The position numbers were made by a program, and so were the translations under genes. Shown here piece after piece: positions 2,990 to 46,541 of a stretch of 64,000 nt of DNA. Numbering within the stretch: the stretch's first letter is position 1; every line of letters begins with the position of its first letter. The stretch is from NCBI RefSeq assembly GCF_041886205.1, contig NZ_CP169029.1; one strand, 5' to 3'. The stretch is from Escherichia coli (lineage in GTDB: Bacteria; Pseudomonadota; Gammaproteobacteria; Enterobacterales; Enterobacteriaceae). The notes beneath the pieces are model-generated. The model ran no database searches. It was not told the DNA's origin and worked only from the letters and a program-made list of their open reading frames with translations.

Positions 2990-4389
2990 ACACTCGCCAG
3001 CTATTGAGCGTCGGTATCGATATCGGCACCACCACCACCCAGGTGATTTTCTCCCACCTGGAACTGGTTAACCGTGCGGCGGTGTCGCAGGTGCCGCGCT
3101 ACGAATTCATCAAACGCGAAATTAGCTGGCAAAGCCCGGTGTACTTTACCCCTGTCGATAAACAGGGTGGTTTAAAAGAAGCGGAACTGAAATCGCTGAT
3201 TTTAGAGCAATATCAGGCTGCGGGCATTGCGCCGGAAAGCGTTGATTCTGGTGCCATCATCATCACCGGTGAAAGCGCGAAAACCCGCAATGCTCGCCCG
3301 GCGGTGATGGCGCTCTCTCAATCGCTGGGGGATTTTGTCGTTGCCAGCGCCGGGCCGCACCTCGAATCCGTGATCGCCGGTCACGGAGCCGGGGCACAAA
3401 CCCTTTCTGAACAACGGCTGTGTCGGGTACTGAATATCGACATCGGCGGTGGCACCGCGAACTACGCCCTGTTCGATGCCGGAAAAATCAGCGGCACCGC
3501 CTGCCTCAACGTCGGTGGTCGCCTGCTGGAAACCGACAGCCAGGGGCGCGTGGTTTACGCTCATAAACCGGGGCAGATGATTGTGGATGAGTGCTTCGGT
3601 GCAGGCACTGACGCCCGTTCGCTGACCGGCGCGCAGCTGGTGCAGGTTACCCGGCGGATGGCGGCGCTGATTGTCGAAGTGATTGACGGAACGCTTTCGC
3701 CGCTCGCGCAGGCATTGATGCAAACCGGTTTGCTGCCCGCAGGTGTTACGCCCGAAATCATTACGCTTTCTGGCGGCGTGGGCGAATGTTATCGCCACCA
3801 GCCCGCCGACCCGTTCTGTTTTGCCGATATTGGCCCACTTCTGGCAACGGCGCTGCATGACCATCCGCGCCTGCGTGAGATGAATGTGCAGTTTCCAGCG
3901 CAAACCGTACGCGCCACGGTGATTGGCGCGGGTGCACATACCCTTTCGCTCTCTGGCAGCACAATCTGGCTGGAGGGCGTACAACTGCCGCTGCGCAATT
4001 TGCCGGTGGCGATCCCAATTGATGAAACGGATCTGGTGTGTGCCTGGCAACAGGCGCTGATTCAGCTGGATCTTGATCCTAAAACTGACGCGTACGTGCT
4101 GGCGCTTCCCGCCTCGCTGCCTGTGCGTTACGCCGCGGTACTGACGGTCATCAACGCGCTGGTCGATTTCGTCGCGCGTTTTCCGAATCCGCATCCCCTG
4201 CTGGTGGTGGCCGGGCAGGACTTTGGTAAAGCTCTGGGCATGTTGTTGCGCCCACAGCTACAACAACTCCCGTTGGCAGTCATTGACGAAGTGATTGTCC
4301 GCGCGGGGGACTATATCGACATTGGTACGCCTCTTTTTGGCGGATCGGTTGTGCCGGTGACGGTGAAATCACTCGCATTTCCTTCCTGA
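2986..4389 (+). CDS. eutA: Ethanolamine ammonia-lyase reactivating factor EutA
   Basis: 467 aa; ATGA overlap with eutH stop; synteny. Confidence 0.9.
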   Translation: MNTRQLLSVGIDIGTTTTQVIFSHLELVNRAAVSQVPRYEFIKREISWQSPVYFTPVDKQGGLKEAELKSLILEQYQAAGIAPESVDSGAIIITGESAKTRNARPAVMALSQSLGDFVVASAGPHLESVIAGHGAGAQTLSEQRLCRVLNIDIGGGTANYALFDAGKISGTACLNVGGRLLETDSQGRVVYAHKPGQMIVDECFGAGTDARSLTGAQLVQVTRRMAALIVEVIDGTLSPLAQALMQTGLLPAGVTPEIITLSGGVGECYRHQPADPFCFADIGPLLATALHDHPRLREMNVQFPAQTVRATVIGAGAHTLSLSGSTIWLEGVQLPLRNLPVAIPIDETDLVCAWQQALIQLDLDPKTDAYVLALPASLPVRYAAVLTVINALVDFVARFPNPHPLLVVAGQDFGKALGMLLRPQLQQLPLAVIDEVIVRAGDYIDIGTPLFGGSVVPVTVKSLAFPS

Positions 4390-4400
4390 GGGAACGACTT

Positions 4401-5762
4401 ATGAAACTAAAGACCACATTGTTCGGCAATGTATATCAGTTTAAGGATGTAAAAGAGGTGCTGGCTAAAGCCAACGAACTGCGTTCGGGGGATGTGCTGG
4501 CGGGCGTTGCAGCGGCAAGCTCACAGGAGCGCGTGGCGGCAAAGCAGGTGTTGTCGGAAATGACCGTAGCGGACATCCGCAATAATCCGGTAATTGCCTA
4601 TGAAGATGACTGCGTGACGCGGCTGATTCAGGACGATGTTAACGAAACGGCCTACAACCAGATTAAAAACTGGAGCATCAGCGAACTGCGTGAGTATGTG
4701 CTGAGCGATGAAACCAGCGTGGACGACATTGCCTTTACCCGCAAAGGGCTGACCTCGGAAGTGGTCGCGGCGGTAGCGAAGATTTGCTCCAACGCGGACC
4801 TGATCTACGGCGCGAAGAAAATGCCGGTAATCAAAAAGGCCAATACCACCATCGGTATTCCGGGCACCTTTAGCGCCCGTTTGCAGCCAAATGACACCCG
4901 TGACGACGTGCAAAGTATCGCCGCGCAAATCTACGAAGGGCTTTCCTTCGGGGTGGGTGATGCGGTGATCGGCGTTAACCCGGTGACAGACGACGTGGAA
5001 AACTTAAGCCGCGTGTTGGACACCATTTATGGCGTGATCGACAAATTCAACATCCCAACTCAGGGCTGCGTACTGGCGCACGTCACCACCCAGATCGAAG
5101 CGATTCGTCGCGGCGCACCAGGCGGGCTGATTTTCCAGAGTATCTGTGGCAGCGAAAAAGGGCTGAAAGAGTTTGGCGTGGAACTGGCGATGCTCGATGA
5201 AGCACGCGCAGTGGGCGCGGAGTTCAACCGTATCGCCGGGGAAAACTGCCTCTACTTCGAAACCGGGCAGGGTTCTGCGCTATCCGCTGGCGCTAACTTC
5301 GGCGCAGACCAGGTGACGATGGAAGCACGTAACTATGGGCTGGCGCGTCATTACGATCCGTTTATCGTCAACACCGTGGTCGGCTTTATTGGGCCGGAGT
5401 ATCTCTACAACGATCGCCAGATTATCCGTGCGGGCTTAGAAGATCACTTTATGGGCAAGCTGAGCGGCATCTCTATGGGCTGTGACTGCTGCTACACCAA
5501 CCACGCTGACGCTGACCAGAACCTCAACGAAAACCTGATGATCCTGCTCGCCACCGCAGGCTGCAACTACATCATGGGGATGCCGCTGGGCGATGACATC
5601 ATGCTCAACTATCAGACCACCGCATTCCACGACACTGCCACTGTGCGTCAGTTACTCAACCTGCGCCCGTCACCGGAGTTTGAACGCTGGCTGGAAAGCA
5701 TGGGCATTATGGCAAACGGTCGCCTGACCAAACGGGCGGGCGATCCGTCACTGTTCTTCTGA
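4401..5762 (+). CDS. eutB: Ethanolamine ammonia-lyase large subunit EutB
   Basis: 453 aa; recognised sequence; follows eutA after an 11-bp gap. Confidence 0.93.
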   Translation: MKLKTTLFGNVYQFKDVKEVLAKANELRSGDVLAGVAAASSQERVAAKQVLSEMTVADIRNNPVIAYEDDCVTRLIQDDVNETAYNQIKNWSISELREYVLSDETSVDDIAFTRKGLTSEVVAAVAKICSNADLIYGAKKMPVIKKANTTIGIPGTFSARLQPNDTRDDVQSIAAQIYEGLSFGVGDAVIGVNPVTDDVENLSRVLDTIYGVIDKFNIPTQGCVLAHVTTQIEAIRRGAPGGLIFQSICGSEKGLKEFGVELAMLDEARAVGAEFNRIAGENCLYFETGQGSALSAGANFGADQVTMEARNYGLARHYDPFIVNTVVGFIGPEYLYNDRQIIRAGLEDHFMGKLSGISMGCDCCYTNHADADQNLNENLMILLATAGCNYIMGMPLGDDIMLNYQTTAFHDTATVRQLLNLRPSPEFERWLESMGIMANGRLTKRAGDPSLFF

Positions 5763-36308: not shown

Positions 36309-36384
36309 TGGTGGGTCGTGCAGGATTCGAACCTGCGACCAATTGATTAAAAGTCAACTGCTCTACCAACTGAGCTAACGACCC
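36309..36384 (-). tRNA. lysV: tRNA-Lys (anticodon UUU)
   Basis: 76-nt match to the tRNA-Lys sequence, including CCA. Confidence 0.95.
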
Positions 36385-36388
36385 GAAG

Positions 36389-36464
36389 TGGTGGGTGATG
36401 ACGGGATCGAACCGCCGACCCCCTCCTTGTAAGGGAGGTGCTCTCCCAGCTGAGCTAATCACCC
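36389..36464 (-). tRNA. valY: tRNA-Val (anticodon UAC)
   Basis: 76-nt tRNA-Val sequence; one of three identical tandem copies. Confidence 0.93.
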
Positions 36465-36510
36465 ACTTCGGTACTTCACATTTTTACAAGAAATTTAGCT
36501 GGCGAAAAAG

Positions 36511-36586
36511 TGGTGGGTGATGACGGGATCGAACCGCCGACCCCCTCCTTGTAAGGGAGGTGCTCTCCCAGCTGAGCTAATCACCC
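36511..36586 (-). tRNA. valX: tRNA-Val (anticodon UAC)
   Basis: Identical copy. Confidence 0.93.
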
Positions 36587-36630
36587 ACTTCTCAATTTCT
36601 TGCTACACGGCGGAGACTACATAAAGTAGT

Positions 36631-36706
36631 TGGTGGGTGATGACGGGATCGAACCGCCGACCCCCTCCTTGTAAGGGAGGTGCTCTCCCAGCTGAGCTAA
36701 TCACCC
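36631..36706 (-). tRNA. valU: tRNA-Val (anticodon UAC)
   Basis: Identical copy; promoter-proximal. Confidence 0.93.
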
Positions 36707-39404: not shown

Positions 39405-39480
<76 letters not shown>

Positions 39481-41926: not shown

Positions 41927-43129
41927 TTACAGCACCAGTGCTGCGATTGACGCCGACAGCACACTCACCAGGGTAGAGCCGTAAACCAGTTTCAGACCGA
42001 AGCGAGAAACCACGTTACCTTGCTCTTCATTCAGGCCTTTAACTGCACCTGCGATAATCCCGATTGAAGAGAAGTTAGCGAAGGAAACCAGGAACACAGA
42101 GATGATGCCTTCAGCACGCGGAGAGAGCGTGGAAGCAATTTTCTGCAGATCCATCATCGCAACGAACTCGTTGGAAACCAGTTTGGTCGCCATGATACTG
42201 CCCACTTGCAGTGCTTCACTGGAAGGAACACCCATCACCCATGCAATCGGATAGAAGATGTAGCCCAGGATGCCCTGGAAGGAGATGCTGTAGCCAAACC
42301 AGCCAGTCACAGTAGCAAACAGTGCGTTCAGTGCGGCGATCAGGGCGATAAAGCCGATCAGCATCGCGGCAACGATAATGGCAACCTTGAAACCTGCCAG
42401 AATGTATTCACCCAGCATTTCGAAGAAGCTCTGACCTTCGTGCAGGTTGGACATCTGAATGTTTTCTTCACTGGCATCAACACGGTAAGGGTTGATCAGC
42501 GACAGCACGATAAAGGTGCTGAACATGTTCAGTACCAGCGCCGCAACGACATATTTCGGCTCCAGCATGGTCATGTATGCACCAACGATGGACATAGATA
42601 CGGTGGACATCGCCGTTGCTGCCATGGTGTACATACGATTGCGGGAGATTTTGCCGAGGATGTCTTTATAGGCAATAAAGTTTTCAGACTGACCCAGAAT
42701 CAGGGAGCTGACGGCGTTAAAGGATTCCAGTTTGCCCATGCCGTTGACTTTGGAGAGCAGGAAACCAATTGCGCGGATAATCACCGGCAACACGCGAATG
42801 TGCTGGAGAATACCGATCAGTGCAGAGATAAAGACGATTGGGCACAGCACTTTCAGGAAGAAGAATGCCAGGCCTTGATCATTCATGCTACCAAAGACGA
42901 AGTTAGTCCCTTCGTTGGCAAATCCGAGCAGTTTTTCGAACATTTCGGAGAAGCCTTTCACGAAGCCTAAACCAACGTCGGAGTTCAGGAAGAACCACGC
43001 CAGTAACACTTCGATAACAAGCAGTTGAATAACATAACGGATACGAATTTTTTTGCGGTCGCTGCTTACCAGCAGTGCGAGAATCGCAACAACGGCAAGT
43101 GCCAGTACAAAATGAAGGACGCGGTCCAT
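41927..43129 (-). CDS. nupC: Nucleoside:H+ symporter NupC (CNT family)
   Basis: ORF track 41927..43168; ATG at 43129 gives 400 aa ([17 protein letters not shown]). Confidence 0.9.
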
Positions 43130-43395
43130 ATTTGCTCCAAATATGAGGCAGGTTAAATTTCCGTGCACATTCTATGTAACATGGTTAAGGAAAACGAGAT
43201 CTGACACACACTATAATGACGTCCTGTGACAAGCTTCAAAAATAGTGATCTGTCATACATTTCTGCTATGTTGTGTATGGGAGCTGAAAGTTATGTAAAT
43301 GTGCTAACATTAAACATAACCATAACATTCAAGTCATCAATCTTTTCGTAGTCATAATCCTGGTCTATCAAAGAAATCACCACAACCCATTTAAA

Positions 43396-43414
43396 TGAAT
43401 TTGATAATCATTCT
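43396..43414. promoter_or_regulatory. Fur box-like site upstream of mntH (TGAATTTGATAATCATTCT)
   Basis: Resembles GATAATGATAATCATTATC consensus; mntH is known to be Fur-regulated. Confidence 0.5.
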
Positions 43415-43430
43415 CGTTTGGCATAGCATG

Positions 43431-43452
43431 AAACATAGCAAAGGCTATGTTT
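43431..43452. promoter_or_regulatory. MntR operator: perfect palindrome AAACATAGC-AAAG-GCTATGTTT overlapping the mntH promoter
   Basis: 9-bp perfect inverted repeat 13 nt upstream of the mntH ATG; matches the MntR box as I recall it. Confidence 0.6.
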
Positions 43453-43455
43453 TAG

Positions 43456-44703
<1,248 letters not shown>

Positions 44704-44730
44704 TTGAATGAGCGTCGCATCTGGCACTAT

Positions 44731-44820
<90 letters not shown>

Positions 44821-44843
44821 TTGTGCTCCATTGGCGAATGTGT

Positions 44844-45170
44844 TTAATGGCGGTGTCCATGTCCGCGGCCTTTTCCGCGATGATCGTCACGATCGCGCCA
44901 GCCTTCACGATAGCCACGCTCATACGTTTTACGCTTATCCCAGCCACGATGGTAGCCATTATCATGACGCCACCAGCGGTTTTTACGCCATTCATAATTG
45001 CGATGCCAGTAATCACGATCTCGCCAGTGACCACCGTCCCAGTAATTACCGTAATGATCGCGATCGCCAATTTGTAATTTGATTGATGGCAGTAGGGTGA
45101 TTTCACCTGCGTTTGCCGCAAGCGGGGTAAATGCCATCAGGGCGGCCGCCAGAAACAGTGACCTGAACAT
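44844..45170 (-). CDS. ypeC: Secreted R/W/H/D/Y-rich low-complexity protein YpeC (DUF2502)
   Basis: 108 aa; signal peptide [21 protein letters not shown], then an unusual Arg/Trp/His/Asp-rich region. Confidence 0.75.
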
Positions 45171-45284
45171 TGTTATTCTCCTTCACGATCGAAGCCGTCA
45201 GCGGCCTGTTAACGCAATATTACGGGGAGGTAAAGCCCCGTATCATCGCCATAACTCTTAAATCATAAAGGAGAGCATTTTTTG

Positions 45285-46541
45285 CTAAACGTTATCGTGG
45301 GGTGGCTGTTGCTTCGGACGATTGACCATCATCATCGGCTTACCTGCTAATAACAGCCATGCCGGAAGCATGACGATACAGAGCAGCGGTAGCAATGTGG
45401 TATTGGGTACAACGACTGCCGCCATAAAAAGACTTAACCAGCCATCGCGTGTTACCACCAGCACGATGCCGAGAATAGCGCAAGAAACGGTTATTGCCGC
45501 TGGTACGGCGGGAACGTGCTCATGCAGCATCAACCCTAATGCCACGCCGACAAACACTGCCGGGAAGATTCGCCCACCGCGAAAGCCACTGGCGGCAGCA
45601 ACGACCAGGGCGGCAAGTTTAATTACCGCCAGCAAAAAGTAATCGCTGGTGCTGAAAGCCTGATTTGCCACCATCTGCTGCATCTCATCCAGCCCTTTAA
45701 ACAGCGAAACCGGCCCACCAATAACCCCCAGAATACCGAGAATAAATCCGCCAATACCCAGCACGAGCACCGGATTTTTCATTTGATGCATCATCGCGTG
45801 CAACCGTGGTAAGCACCATACGGCGACCATCCCTGCTGCGATGGCAATCGCCGCGACAATTGCACCGCTGAGAATATCGGTCATTTGCATCTGTCCGTAA
45901 TGCGCAATGGGCAGTGAAAAATGGGGATGGAAAAATAATCCGGTAGTTAGTGCACCAGCTGCTGCCGCCATTAACGGCGCAAAGAGACGATCCCATAGCG
46001 GAACTTCACTACTGCCATTTAAGGTTTGCGAAAATATCAACGCCGCCGCAACAGGAGTGCCAAACAGTGCGCCGATGGTTCCGGCAGAGGCTAAAATAGT
46101 CCACTCCATTCGGTTGATGCGCGGTAACAGACGAGCGCCAATGGCAACCGCAAGGGCGATATTGACGGTCATGATCGGATGTTCCGGCCCCAGGCTGACG
46201 CCGCCAGCAAGACCGAGAATTAATGCTACGATAAGTCCAGGTAGCGCAGAGGGCGGAACCGGTGCGCCGATCAGCGGTTCACAGGCGGGGTCTGGTCCGG
46301 CATGACCCTGGCTGAAACGGATAACCAACCCCACCGCAATACCCGTTAGCGTTAATACACCGATGATCCAGAGGGGTGAATCCTGGGCTATCCCCAGAGT
46401 TCCCGGCAGTCGTTGCCAGAGCAAATTCTGTAATACCGAGGCGATTTTCATCACCACAATCAGAATAAGACTGGACGCAATCCCAATTGCCACGGCGGGG
46501 AGCGATAATAACAACATGGTTCTGGCTCGCGGATGGAGCAT
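45285..46541 (-). CDS. yfeO: ClC-like ion channel family membrane protein YfeO
   Basis: 418 aa; polytopic; synteny. Confidence 0.8.

Follow-up and report, generated by a model that had tools for sequence, protein, structure and literature searches.

Predicted core-and-tail anatomy and promoter organization of ypeC, an Escherichia coli gene encoding an exported DUF2502 protein

The periplasmic proteins Asr, Spy/CpxP/ZraP and RcnB and the metal sponges SilE/PcoE are, like YpeC of Escherichia coli, small, charged and Sec-exported, and are induced by envelope or metal stress. Several of them bind metals via His-rich or His/Met-rich disordered segments. However, searches of Pfam, NCBIfam and PDB revealed no sequence or fold relation between YpeC and Asr, Spy/CpxP/ZraP, SilE/PcoE or RcnB, and the Trp-rich core of YpeC, which is predicted to fold, has no counterpart in these proteins. 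E. coli also encodes a paralogue, YaaX (b0005), which belongs to the same family by HMM and shares 62% identity with YpeC (E=2e-30), limited to residues 2-66 that cover the signal peptide and the core. They both possess a signal peptide, a YWDG/WRD core and a His-rich tail, and both genes are monocistronic and reported in the Rcs regulon. In contrast, the two tails are unrelated in sequence, being Pro/His-rich in YaaX and Arg/Gly/Asp/His-rich in YpeC; the loci differ (thrC-yaaX-yaaA compared to yfeO-ypeC-mntH), and a MarA/SoxS site is reported for ypeC only, not for yaaX. As neither protein has a known function, the comparison informs on family membership and not on mechanism. The gene, family and regulation of ypeC are already known; the present analysis adds an anatomy of domain and tail, maps the promoter and removes the association with mntH and manganese, and presents no new kind of system.

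The window analysed here is a 64,000-nucleotide stretch of an E. coli chromosome (contig NZ_CP169029.1), and the features of the ypeC locus within it are collected in Table 1. In RefSeq, identical DNA is annotated as ypeC (K-12 locus tag b2390). The encoded protein is identical to K-12 YpeC at 107 of 108 residues, with the single change A82T, and 11 of the 12 coding differences from K-12 are synonymous; thus, both the RefSeq entry and the near identity to K-12 agree with the gene name given in the initial annotation. The gene order nupC-mntH-ypeC-yfeO-glk is the same as in NC_000913, and ypeC was found in 5423 of 5426 complete E. coli genomes. A Pfam profile search bore out the suggested membership of DUF2502 (PF10697), with an E-value of 4.8e-24 and a score of 84.8 bits against a gathering cutoff of 27, the match spanning positions 1-90 of the 90 in the profile. 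NCBIfam yielded no family match for YpeC, and Rfam none at the ypeC locus. In both RefSeq and UniProt, YpeC is still entered as uncharacterised, in line with the original remark that its function is unknown, and a literature search found no paper that reports a biochemical or genetic function.

Table 1. Features of the ypeC locus, with positions counted from the first nucleotide of the window
Feature	Position	Strand	Basis and remarks
ypeC coding sequence	44844..45170	-	ORF list and translation; ATG to TAA, 108 codons plus stop
Signal peptide, residues 1-21	45108..45170	-	predicted cleavage between ANA and GE, from sequence
Conserved DUF2502 core, residues 22-70	44961..45107	-	alignment and AF2; IGDRDxxGxYWDGxxWRDxxWW motif
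Variable His/Arg/Gly/Asp-rich tail, residues 71-108, predicted disordered	44847..44960	-	AF2 and alignment
Shine-Dalgarno AGGAG	45178..45182	-	7 nt upstream of ATG; invariant in six-species alignment
Putative ypeC TSS, 38-nt 5' UTR	45208	-	homology to mapped Salmonella TSS only
-10-like hexamer TAATAT	45217..45222	-	8 nt upstream of putative TSS
TNRGA half-site TAAGA, then GGCGA	45246..45260	-	candidate activator site; TAAGA at 45256-45260
marbox GCATTTTTTGCTAAA (MarA/SoxS)	45275..45289	+	identical to published sites; overlaps yfeO stop codon
REP element 1, palindrome GGCGGATGCGGCGT/ACGCCTTATCCGCC	44731..44765	+	inverted repeat I3; pattern match
REP element 2, in opposite orientation to REP 1	44784..44819	-	inverted repeat I4; second consensus
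Half-REP remnant, 8 nt after mntH stop	44711..44726	+	94% identical to REP 2 arm (family D2)

Comparison with Citrobacter, Klebsiella, Enterobacter and Cronobacter gave dN/dS values of 0.02-0.11, in the core and the tail alike, with 0.02-0.12 for the core region itself, and purifying selection persists in the aligned part of the tail. These values bear on whether ypeC might be a spurious or decaying frame in a repeat-rich intergenic zone, as could be imagined from the adjoining REP elements and from the low-complexity codon usage, which gives rise to three alternative ORFs (83-122 aa) that overlap it in other frames. The strong purifying selection, the motif and signal peptide conserved family-wide, the strong Shine-Dalgarno sequence, the conserved promoter and the regulated transcription, which reaches up to 60-fold, refute such an origin and leave it a negligible probability. 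Altogether, ypeC is almost certainly a monocistronic E. coli core gene, the product of which is a Sec-exported soluble periplasmic DUF2502 protein.

The N-terminus of YpeC contains one Arg and a hydrophobic stretch, followed by A-N-A ahead of Gly22, as is typical of a Sec signal. It has no twin-Arg, and the absence of Cys from YpeC means that there is no lipobox. In the DUF2502 family, conservation of the Ala at position -1 reaches at least 90%, and the mature N-terminus (G/A)EITL is also kept; the sequence and this conserved Ala together uphold the Sec-type signal peptide called at the outset. The mature protein of 87 residues consists of 18.4% Arg, 14.9% Gly, 11.5% Asp, 10.3% His (nine residues), 9.2% Trp and 8.0% Tyr, and is devoid of Ala, Cys, Phe, Met and Val. 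It has a GRAVY of -2.15, a pI of about 10 and a net charge of +7, with 21 basic and 14 acidic residues. In total, Arg, Trp, His, Asp, Tyr and Gly account for 72% of the mature protein, compared to a mean of 24% (sd 4%) in the 51 long ORFs of the window (z about 12) and a maximum of 45% among 14,246 segments of 87 residues, so the description of a mature region dominated by these six residues holds.

The short degenerate repeats reported along with this composition did not hold. Smith-Waterman self-alignment of YpeC at five split points, compared to 2000 composition-preserving shuffles, gave best scores with p of 0.23-0.56 and z of -0.2 to 0.7, which indicates that the repeat-like look of the protein reflects composition bias. 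A reading of YpeC as a tandem-repeat protein was rejected on this test, as its internal repeats do not go beyond composition. The same composition might also recall an antimicrobial-peptide-like or toxin-like product secreted against competitors, since Arg plus Trp make up 28% of mature YpeC and R/W-rich antimicrobial peptides, such as indolicidin and tritrpticin, resemble it in this content; however, the acidic residues offset the basic ones, no immunity, processing or export gene is adjacent at the loci examined, and there is no obvious outer-membrane route for YpeC in E. coli K-12. In addition, ypeC is a core chromosomal gene, present in nearly every E. coli genome searched, and is induced by damage to the cell's own envelope, which makes a role against competitors highly improbable.

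Further analysis was based on an alignment of 49 relatives, all of which match DUF2502 and none of which has a second Pfam family. Conservation in the family is concentrated in the region corresponding to YpeC residues 22-60. Among the 49 members, Gly35, Gly41 and Trp44 are invariant, and Pro28, Asp38, Tyr43, Asp45, Gly46, Trp49, Arg50 and Trp55 are at least 90% conserved; YpeC has all of them. The core (about residues 30-70) was predicted with a pLDDT of 84-92 in two independent AF2 runs of identical secondary structure, in which β-strands are followed by the motif, a short helix and a β-hairpin. A core-only AF2 model, with a mean pLDDT of 81, adopts the same secondary structure as the full-length model, in which the core has a pLDDT of 84-90. 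By contrast, residues 75-108 have a pLDDT below 50, suggesting that YpeC is only partly disordered. The term low-complexity used in the initial annotation therefore suits the tail, whereas residues 22-70 are conserved and confidently predicted to fold. Sequence and profile searches of the PDB with YpeC found no match even at E-values up to 10, and a PDB fold search with the predicted core revealed no resembling structure; a known enzymatic fold, which would have spoken against the original reading, was not found. We predict that the DUF2502 core is a small β-rich domain without known structural relative.

Across the family, the tail varies in sequence but keeps its composition. Its most conserved feature is the His-rich C-terminus, with at least three His in the last 12 residues of 39 out of 49 members, and over the 49 a mature protein has a median of 10 His. 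Net charge ranges from -15 to +10, with 39 of 49 members cationic and six clearly acidic, so a positive charge is not a family constant. These features of core and tail help to judge whether YpeC could be a disordered, non-specific periplasmic polycation, a chaperone, aggregation modulator or charge shield of the Asr/Spy kind that has neither a folded domain nor a specific ligand. The extreme composition, with five amino-acid types absent and a strongly negative GRAVY, the predicted disorder of a tail that preserves composition and not sequence, and the induction of ypeC alongside the stress chaperone gene spy when Lol is inhibited all fit such a polymer. They are outweighed by residues 22-70, which hold position-specific invariant Gly, Trp, Asp and Pro from Entero- to Betaproteobacteria and are confidently modelled in both AF2 runs; moreover, positional constraint of the kind seen in the core dN/dS is unexpected in a purely compositional polymer, and six members of the family are net acidic. 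We consider this reading unlikely, and favor a folded core joined to a variable tail.

A unit of ~30 residues with the motif GDRDxRGxYWDGxxWRDxxWW is duplicated in some homologues. Such two-module DUF2502 proteins occur in Serratia, Brenneria and some Betaproteobacteria (e.g. P0199, P0202 and P0170), and share with YpeC this unit, the signal peptide and the His-rich ends; however, they carry two tandem units compared to one canonical copy in YpeC, the later YxxGW segments of which are not significantly repeat-like. A profile search with the 45-residue core returned short proteins with DUF2502 only and no informative domain fusions. An apparent fusion of Nramp and DUF2502 (P0135) was discarded as an artefact, as it is located on a contig of 243 nt.

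In Salmonella, the TSS of ypeC was mapped at the junction of ...GCATTAA and CAGGCC (PMC10268841, suppl. Fig. S1), and the counterpart in the window reads ...GCGTTAA and CAGGCC. Placed on this start, ypeC would have its own activator-dependent promoter, comprising a marbox centered at about -73, a TNRGA element around -45, TAATAT as the -10 hexamer and a 38-nt leader. These promoter blocks are conserved in five genera despite a differing upstream gene. The hexamer TAATAT is kept in E. coli, Citrobacter, Enterobacter and Cronobacter, and also in Klebsiella with one change just after it. A simple sigma-70 consensus scan found no promoter around ypeC, as expected for a promoter that depends on an activator. 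A class II model with TATGAT beside the marbox as the -10 element was rejected, because TATGAT is not conserved and transcription in Salmonella was mapped to start at a more downstream position. In E. coli, a MarA ChIP-seq peak at ypeC contains a site identical to GCATTTTTTGCTAAA (PMC5684230); a Salmonella SoxS peak has the identical site, and the promoter was classed as class I (PMC10268841). The marbox present at this ChIP-defined site indicates, at the sequence level, that ypeC belongs to the MarA/SoxS/Rob regulon.

Published data place ypeC under the Rcs phosphorelay as well. It is induced 42-60-fold by a LolCDE inhibitor, together with osmB, bdm and wca genes (PMC5105897), and its level is 23.7-fold lower upon rcsB disruption in O157 (PMC5343319). 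The paralogous yaaX is an RcsB regulon member induced by colicin M (PMC2731931, PMC3599342), and a Serratia DUF2502 promoter serves as an Rcs reporter (PMC8470065). Strong expression under Rcs activation, as these papers report it, also shows that the gene is not silent under every condition, which would have spoken against the initial annotation. The TNRGA half-site is kept as TAAGA, TCGGA or TCAGA in five genera and extends to a perfect TCGGA-N5-TCCGA palindrome in Klebsiella; in the yaaX promoter, TAGGA lies 38 nt from a TAATCT hexamer, the same distance as in ypeC. This conserved half-site is possibly an RcsB site. The strict RcsB box, TN(G/A)GAN4TC(T/C)NA, i.e. TNRGAN4TCYNA (PMC7913699), has no match within one mismatch near 45171-45400, where the half-site alone occurs; thus, Rcs control may be indirect, heterodimer- or partner-dependent, or exerted via a degenerate site.

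Taking composition, regulation and predicted fold together, we tentatively propose that YpeC acts as an envelope-damage response protein. According to the published data, ypeC is strongly induced upon activation of the Rcs phosphorelay and is a direct target of MarA/SoxS in addition. The role of the aromatic/Arg/Asp core would be to bind a ligand in the periplasm, most naturally a glycan or a phosphate-bearing envelope polymer, which is the usual kind of ligand for such surfaces, and that of the His-rich tail to capture divalent metal ions or protons. In this way YpeC would buffer or bridge charge in the stressed periplasm, and would have no part in the Mn uptake system encoded next door. The mechanism itself, with its ligand-binding core and metal- or proton-binding tail, we regard as possible but doubtful; the overall explanation of identity, anatomy, regulation and mechanism is, on balance, probable.

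The metal or nucleic-acid/polyanion binding suggested in the initial annotation is in part compatible with this proposal. Binding of metal or of a polyanion is plausible from composition, the former in view of the His-rich C-terminus in 39 of 49 relatives, the latter in view of the equally large share of net cationic members. Nevertheless, a simple polyanion-binding model is weakened by the lack of conservation of net charge, and binding of nucleic acid is unlikely as YpeC is Sec-exported. Neither sequence nor fold showed homology to known periplasmic metal-binding families such as ZraP/Spy/CpxP, RcnB, SilE/PcoE and ZinT, and metal-responsive regulation of ypeC was not encountered in the papers found.

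A more specific and quite unlikely version would have the DUF2502 core as an unrecognised, Trp-stabilised mini-fold of ~45 residues that can occur in tandem and recognises a specific envelope polymer, for which peptidoglycan, LPS core or lipid A phosphates, OPGs and colanic acid are candidates, with YpeC and YaaX as Rcs effectors. The predicted fold without PDB analogue and the documented family-wide Rcs control are compatible with it. If so, YpeC and YaaX would physically reinforce or charge-shield the envelope, e.g. against cationic antimicrobial peptides or lysozyme, and the His-rich tail would tune binding by metal or pH. In any case, ypeC is among the genes most strongly induced on Rcs activation and is also a direct MarA/SoxS target. 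The Rcs and Mar/Sox responses have a share in antibiotic tolerance, and the role of YpeC, once known, would add a missing piece to the picture of how enteric bacteria mend or protect an envelope that has been damaged.

The initial annotation placed ypeC just downstream of mntH and suggested profiling its expression under Mn/Fe limitation. The position is correct, but the two genes are convergent and lie on opposite strands. A YpeC that partners MntH in the periplasm, for example in metal capture or delivery under Mn/Fe limitation, might be conceived from its His/Asp-rich composition with H-x-H repeats at the C-terminus, and from the adjacency of ypeC and mntH in Klebsiella, Enterobacter and Cronobacter and, with one inserted gene, in Pantoea. 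However, this adjacency belongs to a larger syntenic block, glk-ypeC-mntH-nupC, and is absent at one Citrobacter locus, and the convergent genes have separate promoters with a BIME in between. No Nramp neighbor accompanies yaaX or the homologues in Brenneria, Jeongeupia, Dechloromonas, Cupriavidus and Rhodocyclaceae. Likewise, apart from the enterobacterial glk-mntH-nupC synteny, no gene was found repeatedly beside the homologues at 11 loci, on which ground a functional link to mntH is rejected. The reported regulators of ypeC are Rcs and MarA/SoxS, and control by Fur, MntR or another metal sensor is not reported in the papers found. Furthermore, the coordination chemistry of His-rich tails typically favors Zn, Ni or Cu over Mn. 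The Mn/Fe connection is therefore dropped, and a partnership with MntH is very unlikely.

As originally described, two REP elements separate ypeC from mntH, both within the 140-nt gap between them; the accompanying statement that REPs flank ypeC is correct for its 3' side only, as the 114-nt gap between yfeO and ypeC upstream gave no match. Both elements have zero mismatches to the patterns that we take to be the REP consensus, the first of which was guided by the local sequence, with zero chance matches expected; the pattern of REP 1 has four copies in the window compared to zero expected. The two REPs are in opposite orientations, 18 nt apart, and constitute a BIME in the 3' region common to ypeC and mntH. 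Folding of the pair as RNA gave -55.7 kcal/mol (z of -3.8), and a scan for intrinsic terminators found none in this gap or around ypeC. The ypeC transcript probably ends in this inverted REP pair, held in common with mntH, which would act as a 3' stabiliser or barrier. The REPs are a part of the locus and not of the function of YpeC. The inverted pair, the RNA hairpins and the recurrence of the gap sequence at no fewer than 40 sites in each E. coli genome match REP/BIME elements in convergent 3' regions elsewhere. Compared to other BIMEs, this one presents nothing unusual, and an extra half-REP adjoins the mntH stop.

The ypeC gene spans 44844-45170 on the minus strand, precisely where the initial annotation had placed it, and encodes 108 residues from an ATG start to a TAA stop. 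The anticipated DUF2502 assignment also held, with YpeC scoring 84.8 bits against a Pfam cutoff of 27; NCBIfam has no model for it, and RefSeq labels identical DNA, between yfeO and mntH, as “DUF2502 domain-containing protein YpeC”. The defining features were tested and are present: the protein belongs to DUF2502 and is orthologous to K-12 YpeC. The gene, its family and its regulation are already recorded in databases and papers, and we are nearly certain of both the identity and the regulation described here. Three ORFs in other frames overlap ypeC, which are by-products of its repetitive codon content. That ypeC itself is spurious is hardly conceivable: it is detected in 5423 of 5426 complete E. 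coli genomes, and its dN/dS (Nei-Gojobori) is 0.03-0.11 against the orthologues of Citrobacter, Klebsiella, Enterobacter and Cronobacter, with similar values in residues 22-70 and the aligned portion of the tail. It is thus a genuine protein-coding gene under constraint.

The 3' two-thirds of ypeC (44836-45025) is a rare allele: only 9 of 5424 E. coli genomes carry it at no less than 99% identity, and its identity to K-12-like genomes is 94%. Despite this, A82T is the only amino-acid change among the 12 coding differences from K-12, the other 11 being synonymous. The 130 nt upstream differ at a single position. It looks like either a recombination patch or locally high synonymous diversity beside the REPs.

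Residues 1-21 of YpeC are organised like a Sec signal peptide, as previously proposed, with a single basic residue, ~15 hydrophobic residues in a row and A-N-A preceding G22; position -1 is Ala in at least 90% of 49 aligned DUF2502 members. There is no twin-arginine and no cysteine in the sequence, so YpeC is not a lipoprotein. The mature protein of 87 residues contains 18.4% R, 14.9% G, 11.5% D, 10.3% H, 9.2% W and 8.0% Y, and is devoid of A, C, F, M and V. Together these six residues make up 72% of the chain, compared to a mean of 24% (sd 4%) in the 51 ORFs of at least 200 aa in the window, giving a z of ~12, and no 87-residue segment of those ORFs exceeds 45%; the reported composition bias is therefore real and extreme. 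By contrast, the short degenerate repeats claimed for this region did not survive comparison, since self-alignment at five split points scored no higher than composition-preserving shuffles (p 0.23-0.56). The mature chain is basic (pI ~10, net charge +7), and net charge across the family ranges from -15 to +10, positive in 39 members and negative in six. An antimicrobial-peptide-like product is very improbable.

Exhaustive searching of 1.84 billion representative proteins with phmmer recovered relatives in only 86 clusters, many of which are chimeric or frameshifted assemblies. Named members belong to the Enterobacterales (Escherichia, Citrobacter, Klebsiella, Enterobacter, Cronobacter, Pantoea, Brenneria, Serratia and Chimaeribacter) and to a few Betaproteobacteria (Jeongeupia, Rhodocyclaceae, Dechloromonas and Cupriavidus), and the distant matches align only to residues ~1-60 of YpeC. 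Within the 49 aligned members, G35, G41 and W44 are invariant, and P28, D38, Y43, D45, G46, W49, R50 and W55 are at least 90% conserved. The unit GDRDxRGxYWDGxxWRDxxWW is tandemly duplicated in several homologues. The E. coli paralogue YaaX shares 62% identity with YpeC over residues 2-66, whereas the two are unrelated beyond residue 66. Towards the C-terminus, sequence and length differ between members while the character is kept, with at least three His among the last 12 residues in 39 of the 49 members and a median of 10 His per mature protein.

AlphaFold2 prediction of full-length YpeC with the family alignment gave a pLDDT of 84-90 at residues ~30-70 and below 50 at residues 75-108. For residues 22-76 alone, the strands, a short helix and a hairpin recurred, with a mean pLDDT of 81. 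Sequence and profile searches of the PDB with YpeC returned no match, and Foldseek of the model against the PDB found no resembling structure (best E-value 3). The predicted YpeC thus comprises a signal peptide, a small Trp-rich domain without known analogue and a disordered His-rich tail. YpeC is accordingly not low-complexity along its whole length. That it is disordered throughout and acts non-specifically, as a polycation or chaperone, is rather doubtful given this core. YpeC belongs to no characterised metal-binding or chaperone family, homology having been tested and not found.

Several observations concern the family at large. Three betaproteobacterial members (P0170, P0182 and P0196) carry a conserved C-PPGQAKKG-x-C ending, not captured by Pfam, in place of the His-rich tail. 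UniRef lists a Pantoea member as “zinc ABC transporter substrate-binding protein”, probably a wrong name prompted by its His-rich tail. A large share of the “representative” entries among the retrieved relatives (P0121-P0202) are frameshifted or chimeric products of low-quality assemblies; for example, an apparent Nramp-DUF2502 fusion (P0135) comes from a 243-nt contig and is an artefact.

Features around ypeC
Feature	Position	Strand	Basis or remark
Shine-Dalgarno AGGAG	7 nt upstream of ypeC ATG	-	sequence reading
Leader hairpin GCCG-CTGA-CGGC	45194-45205		5' end of inferred leader
Predicted leader, 38 nt		-	from Salmonella TSS
Position homologous to Salmonella TSS	45208		
Predicted -10 hexamer TAATAT	45222-45217	-	
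Palindrome ACGGGG-N8-CCCCGT	45222-45241		between candidate activator site and -10 hexamer
TNRGA half-site TAAGA, candidate activator site	45260-45256	-	five-genus alignment
Marbox, exact 15-mer copy	45275-45289		centre near -73 from inferred TSS; overlaps yfeO stop codon
yaaX half-site/hexamer region	640-690 of L003 (K-12 yaaX region), upstream of yaaX, against 45217-45260		sequence comparison
REP	44731-44765	+	consensus pattern, 0 mismatches
REP	44784-44819	-	consensus pattern, 0 mismatches
Half-REP	44711-44726		8 nt past mntH stop; 94% identity to one arm of neighbouring REP

The Rcs dependence and MarA/SoxS binding of ypeC are known from the literature. Blocking lipoprotein trafficking raised ypeC 42-fold and 60-fold, among the strongest responses, together with osmB, bdm, wca and spy (PMC5105897), and an E. 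coli O157:H7 isolate with disrupted rcsB had a 23.7-fold lower ypeC level (PMC5343319). The paralogue yaaX is a colicin M-induced member of the RcsB regulon (PMC2731931, PMC3599342), and the promoter of a Serratia DUF2502 gene is used to report Rcs activity (PMC8470065). The site GCATTTTTTGCTAAA at ypeC was identified by ChIP-seq of MarA in E. coli (PMC5684230) and of SoxS in Salmonella, where the promoter is assigned to class I and the TSS marked at ...GCATTAA*CAGGCC (PMC10268841, supplementary figure). Alignment of the upstream regions of five genera revealed conserved blocks at the marbox, the TNRGA half-site, TAATAT and the leader, which are kept despite different upstream genes (yfeO in E. 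coli, an aldo-keto reductase in the other genera). The strict RcsB box, TN(G/A)GAN4TC(T/C)NA (PMC7913699), is absent from the ypeC promoter even with one mismatch, so any direct binding of RcsB there is hypothetical. In the yaaX promoter region, TAGGA lies 38 nt upstream of a TAATCT hexamer, the same distance as between TAAGA and TAATAT in ypeC; this hints at a design that the two paralogues may share and that may be Rcs-responsive. The palindrome in the spacer has a compensatory version in Enterobacter (ACGAG...CTCGT), is absent in Salmonella, and may be either a remnant of the upstream gene's terminator or a site bound by a protein. The leader hairpin is kept in five genera as GGCC...GGCC with variable loops, and may stabilise the mRNA.

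As a tentative mechanism, YpeC would work in the periplasm during envelope damage, with its aromatic/Arg/Asp core binding a ligand and its His-rich tail either binding divalent metals or serving as a cationic segment that titrates with pH. Sugars or phosphorylated polymers are the typical ligands of surfaces in which Trp, Tyr, Arg and Asp abound. YpeC has no homology to His-rich periplasmic metal buffers or Asr, but may work in a similar mode.

The 140-nt gap between the stop codons of ypeC and mntH holds two opposite REP palindromes; their zero-mismatch matches, for which the chance expectation is 0, are to REP consensus patterns, the first having been shaped by the local sequence. REPs adjoin ypeC on its 3' side, but do not flank it as had been described, the 114-nt yfeO-ypeC gap being REP-free. 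Of 5426 complete E. coli genomes, 5425 contain the gap sequence at 40 or more sites each. Folded as RNA, the pair yields two strong hairpins (-55.7 kcal/mol, z -3.8). A scan for intrinsic terminators found none in the gap. The pair is an ordinary BIME between convergent genes. Elsewhere, three REP copies with a 100-nt period lie at 1501-1728. Two units of this array match naRNA4/CssrE, a nucleoid-associated RNA originating from a REP cluster, with scores that reach the Rfam gathering level.

The adjacency of ypeC and mntH belongs to a larger syntenic block, and is kept in Klebsiella, Enterobacter and Cronobacter; one extra gene intervenes in Pantoea, and the adjacency is missing at one Citrobacter locus. 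No recurrent neighbour was found for yaaX and the homologues of Brenneria, Jeongeupia, Cupriavidus, Dechloromonas and one Rhodocyclaceae genome, whose contexts are unrelated. Because the two genes are convergent with separate promoters, contexts vary and our literature search found no report of metal-dependent ypeC regulation, the suggested Mn/Fe link is rejected as unsupported, and a role as MntH partner is unlikely. Both E. coli DUF2502 genes are convergent with a neighbour in K-12, ypeC with mntH (4002-5707 of its region, L001) and yaaX with yaaA (735-1960 of L003). Both neighbours, mntH and yaaA, are peroxide-stress (OxyR) regulated, and this parallel is probably a coincidence.

Near mntH, a 29-codon ORF (43395-43484, plus strand) overlaps the mntH start and encodes the same amino-acid sequence as YpeD, an annotated small protein of K-12. 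For nupC (41927-43168), the ORF lister extends the frame to an upstream GTG (413 aa), ahead of the annotated 1203-nt gene. IS186 lies just past nupC in K-12 (L001), whereas the strain matching the window (L002) has pdeA there and no IS. Rfam further identified four tRNA genes on the minus strand (36312-36706) and one on the plus strand (39405-39477).
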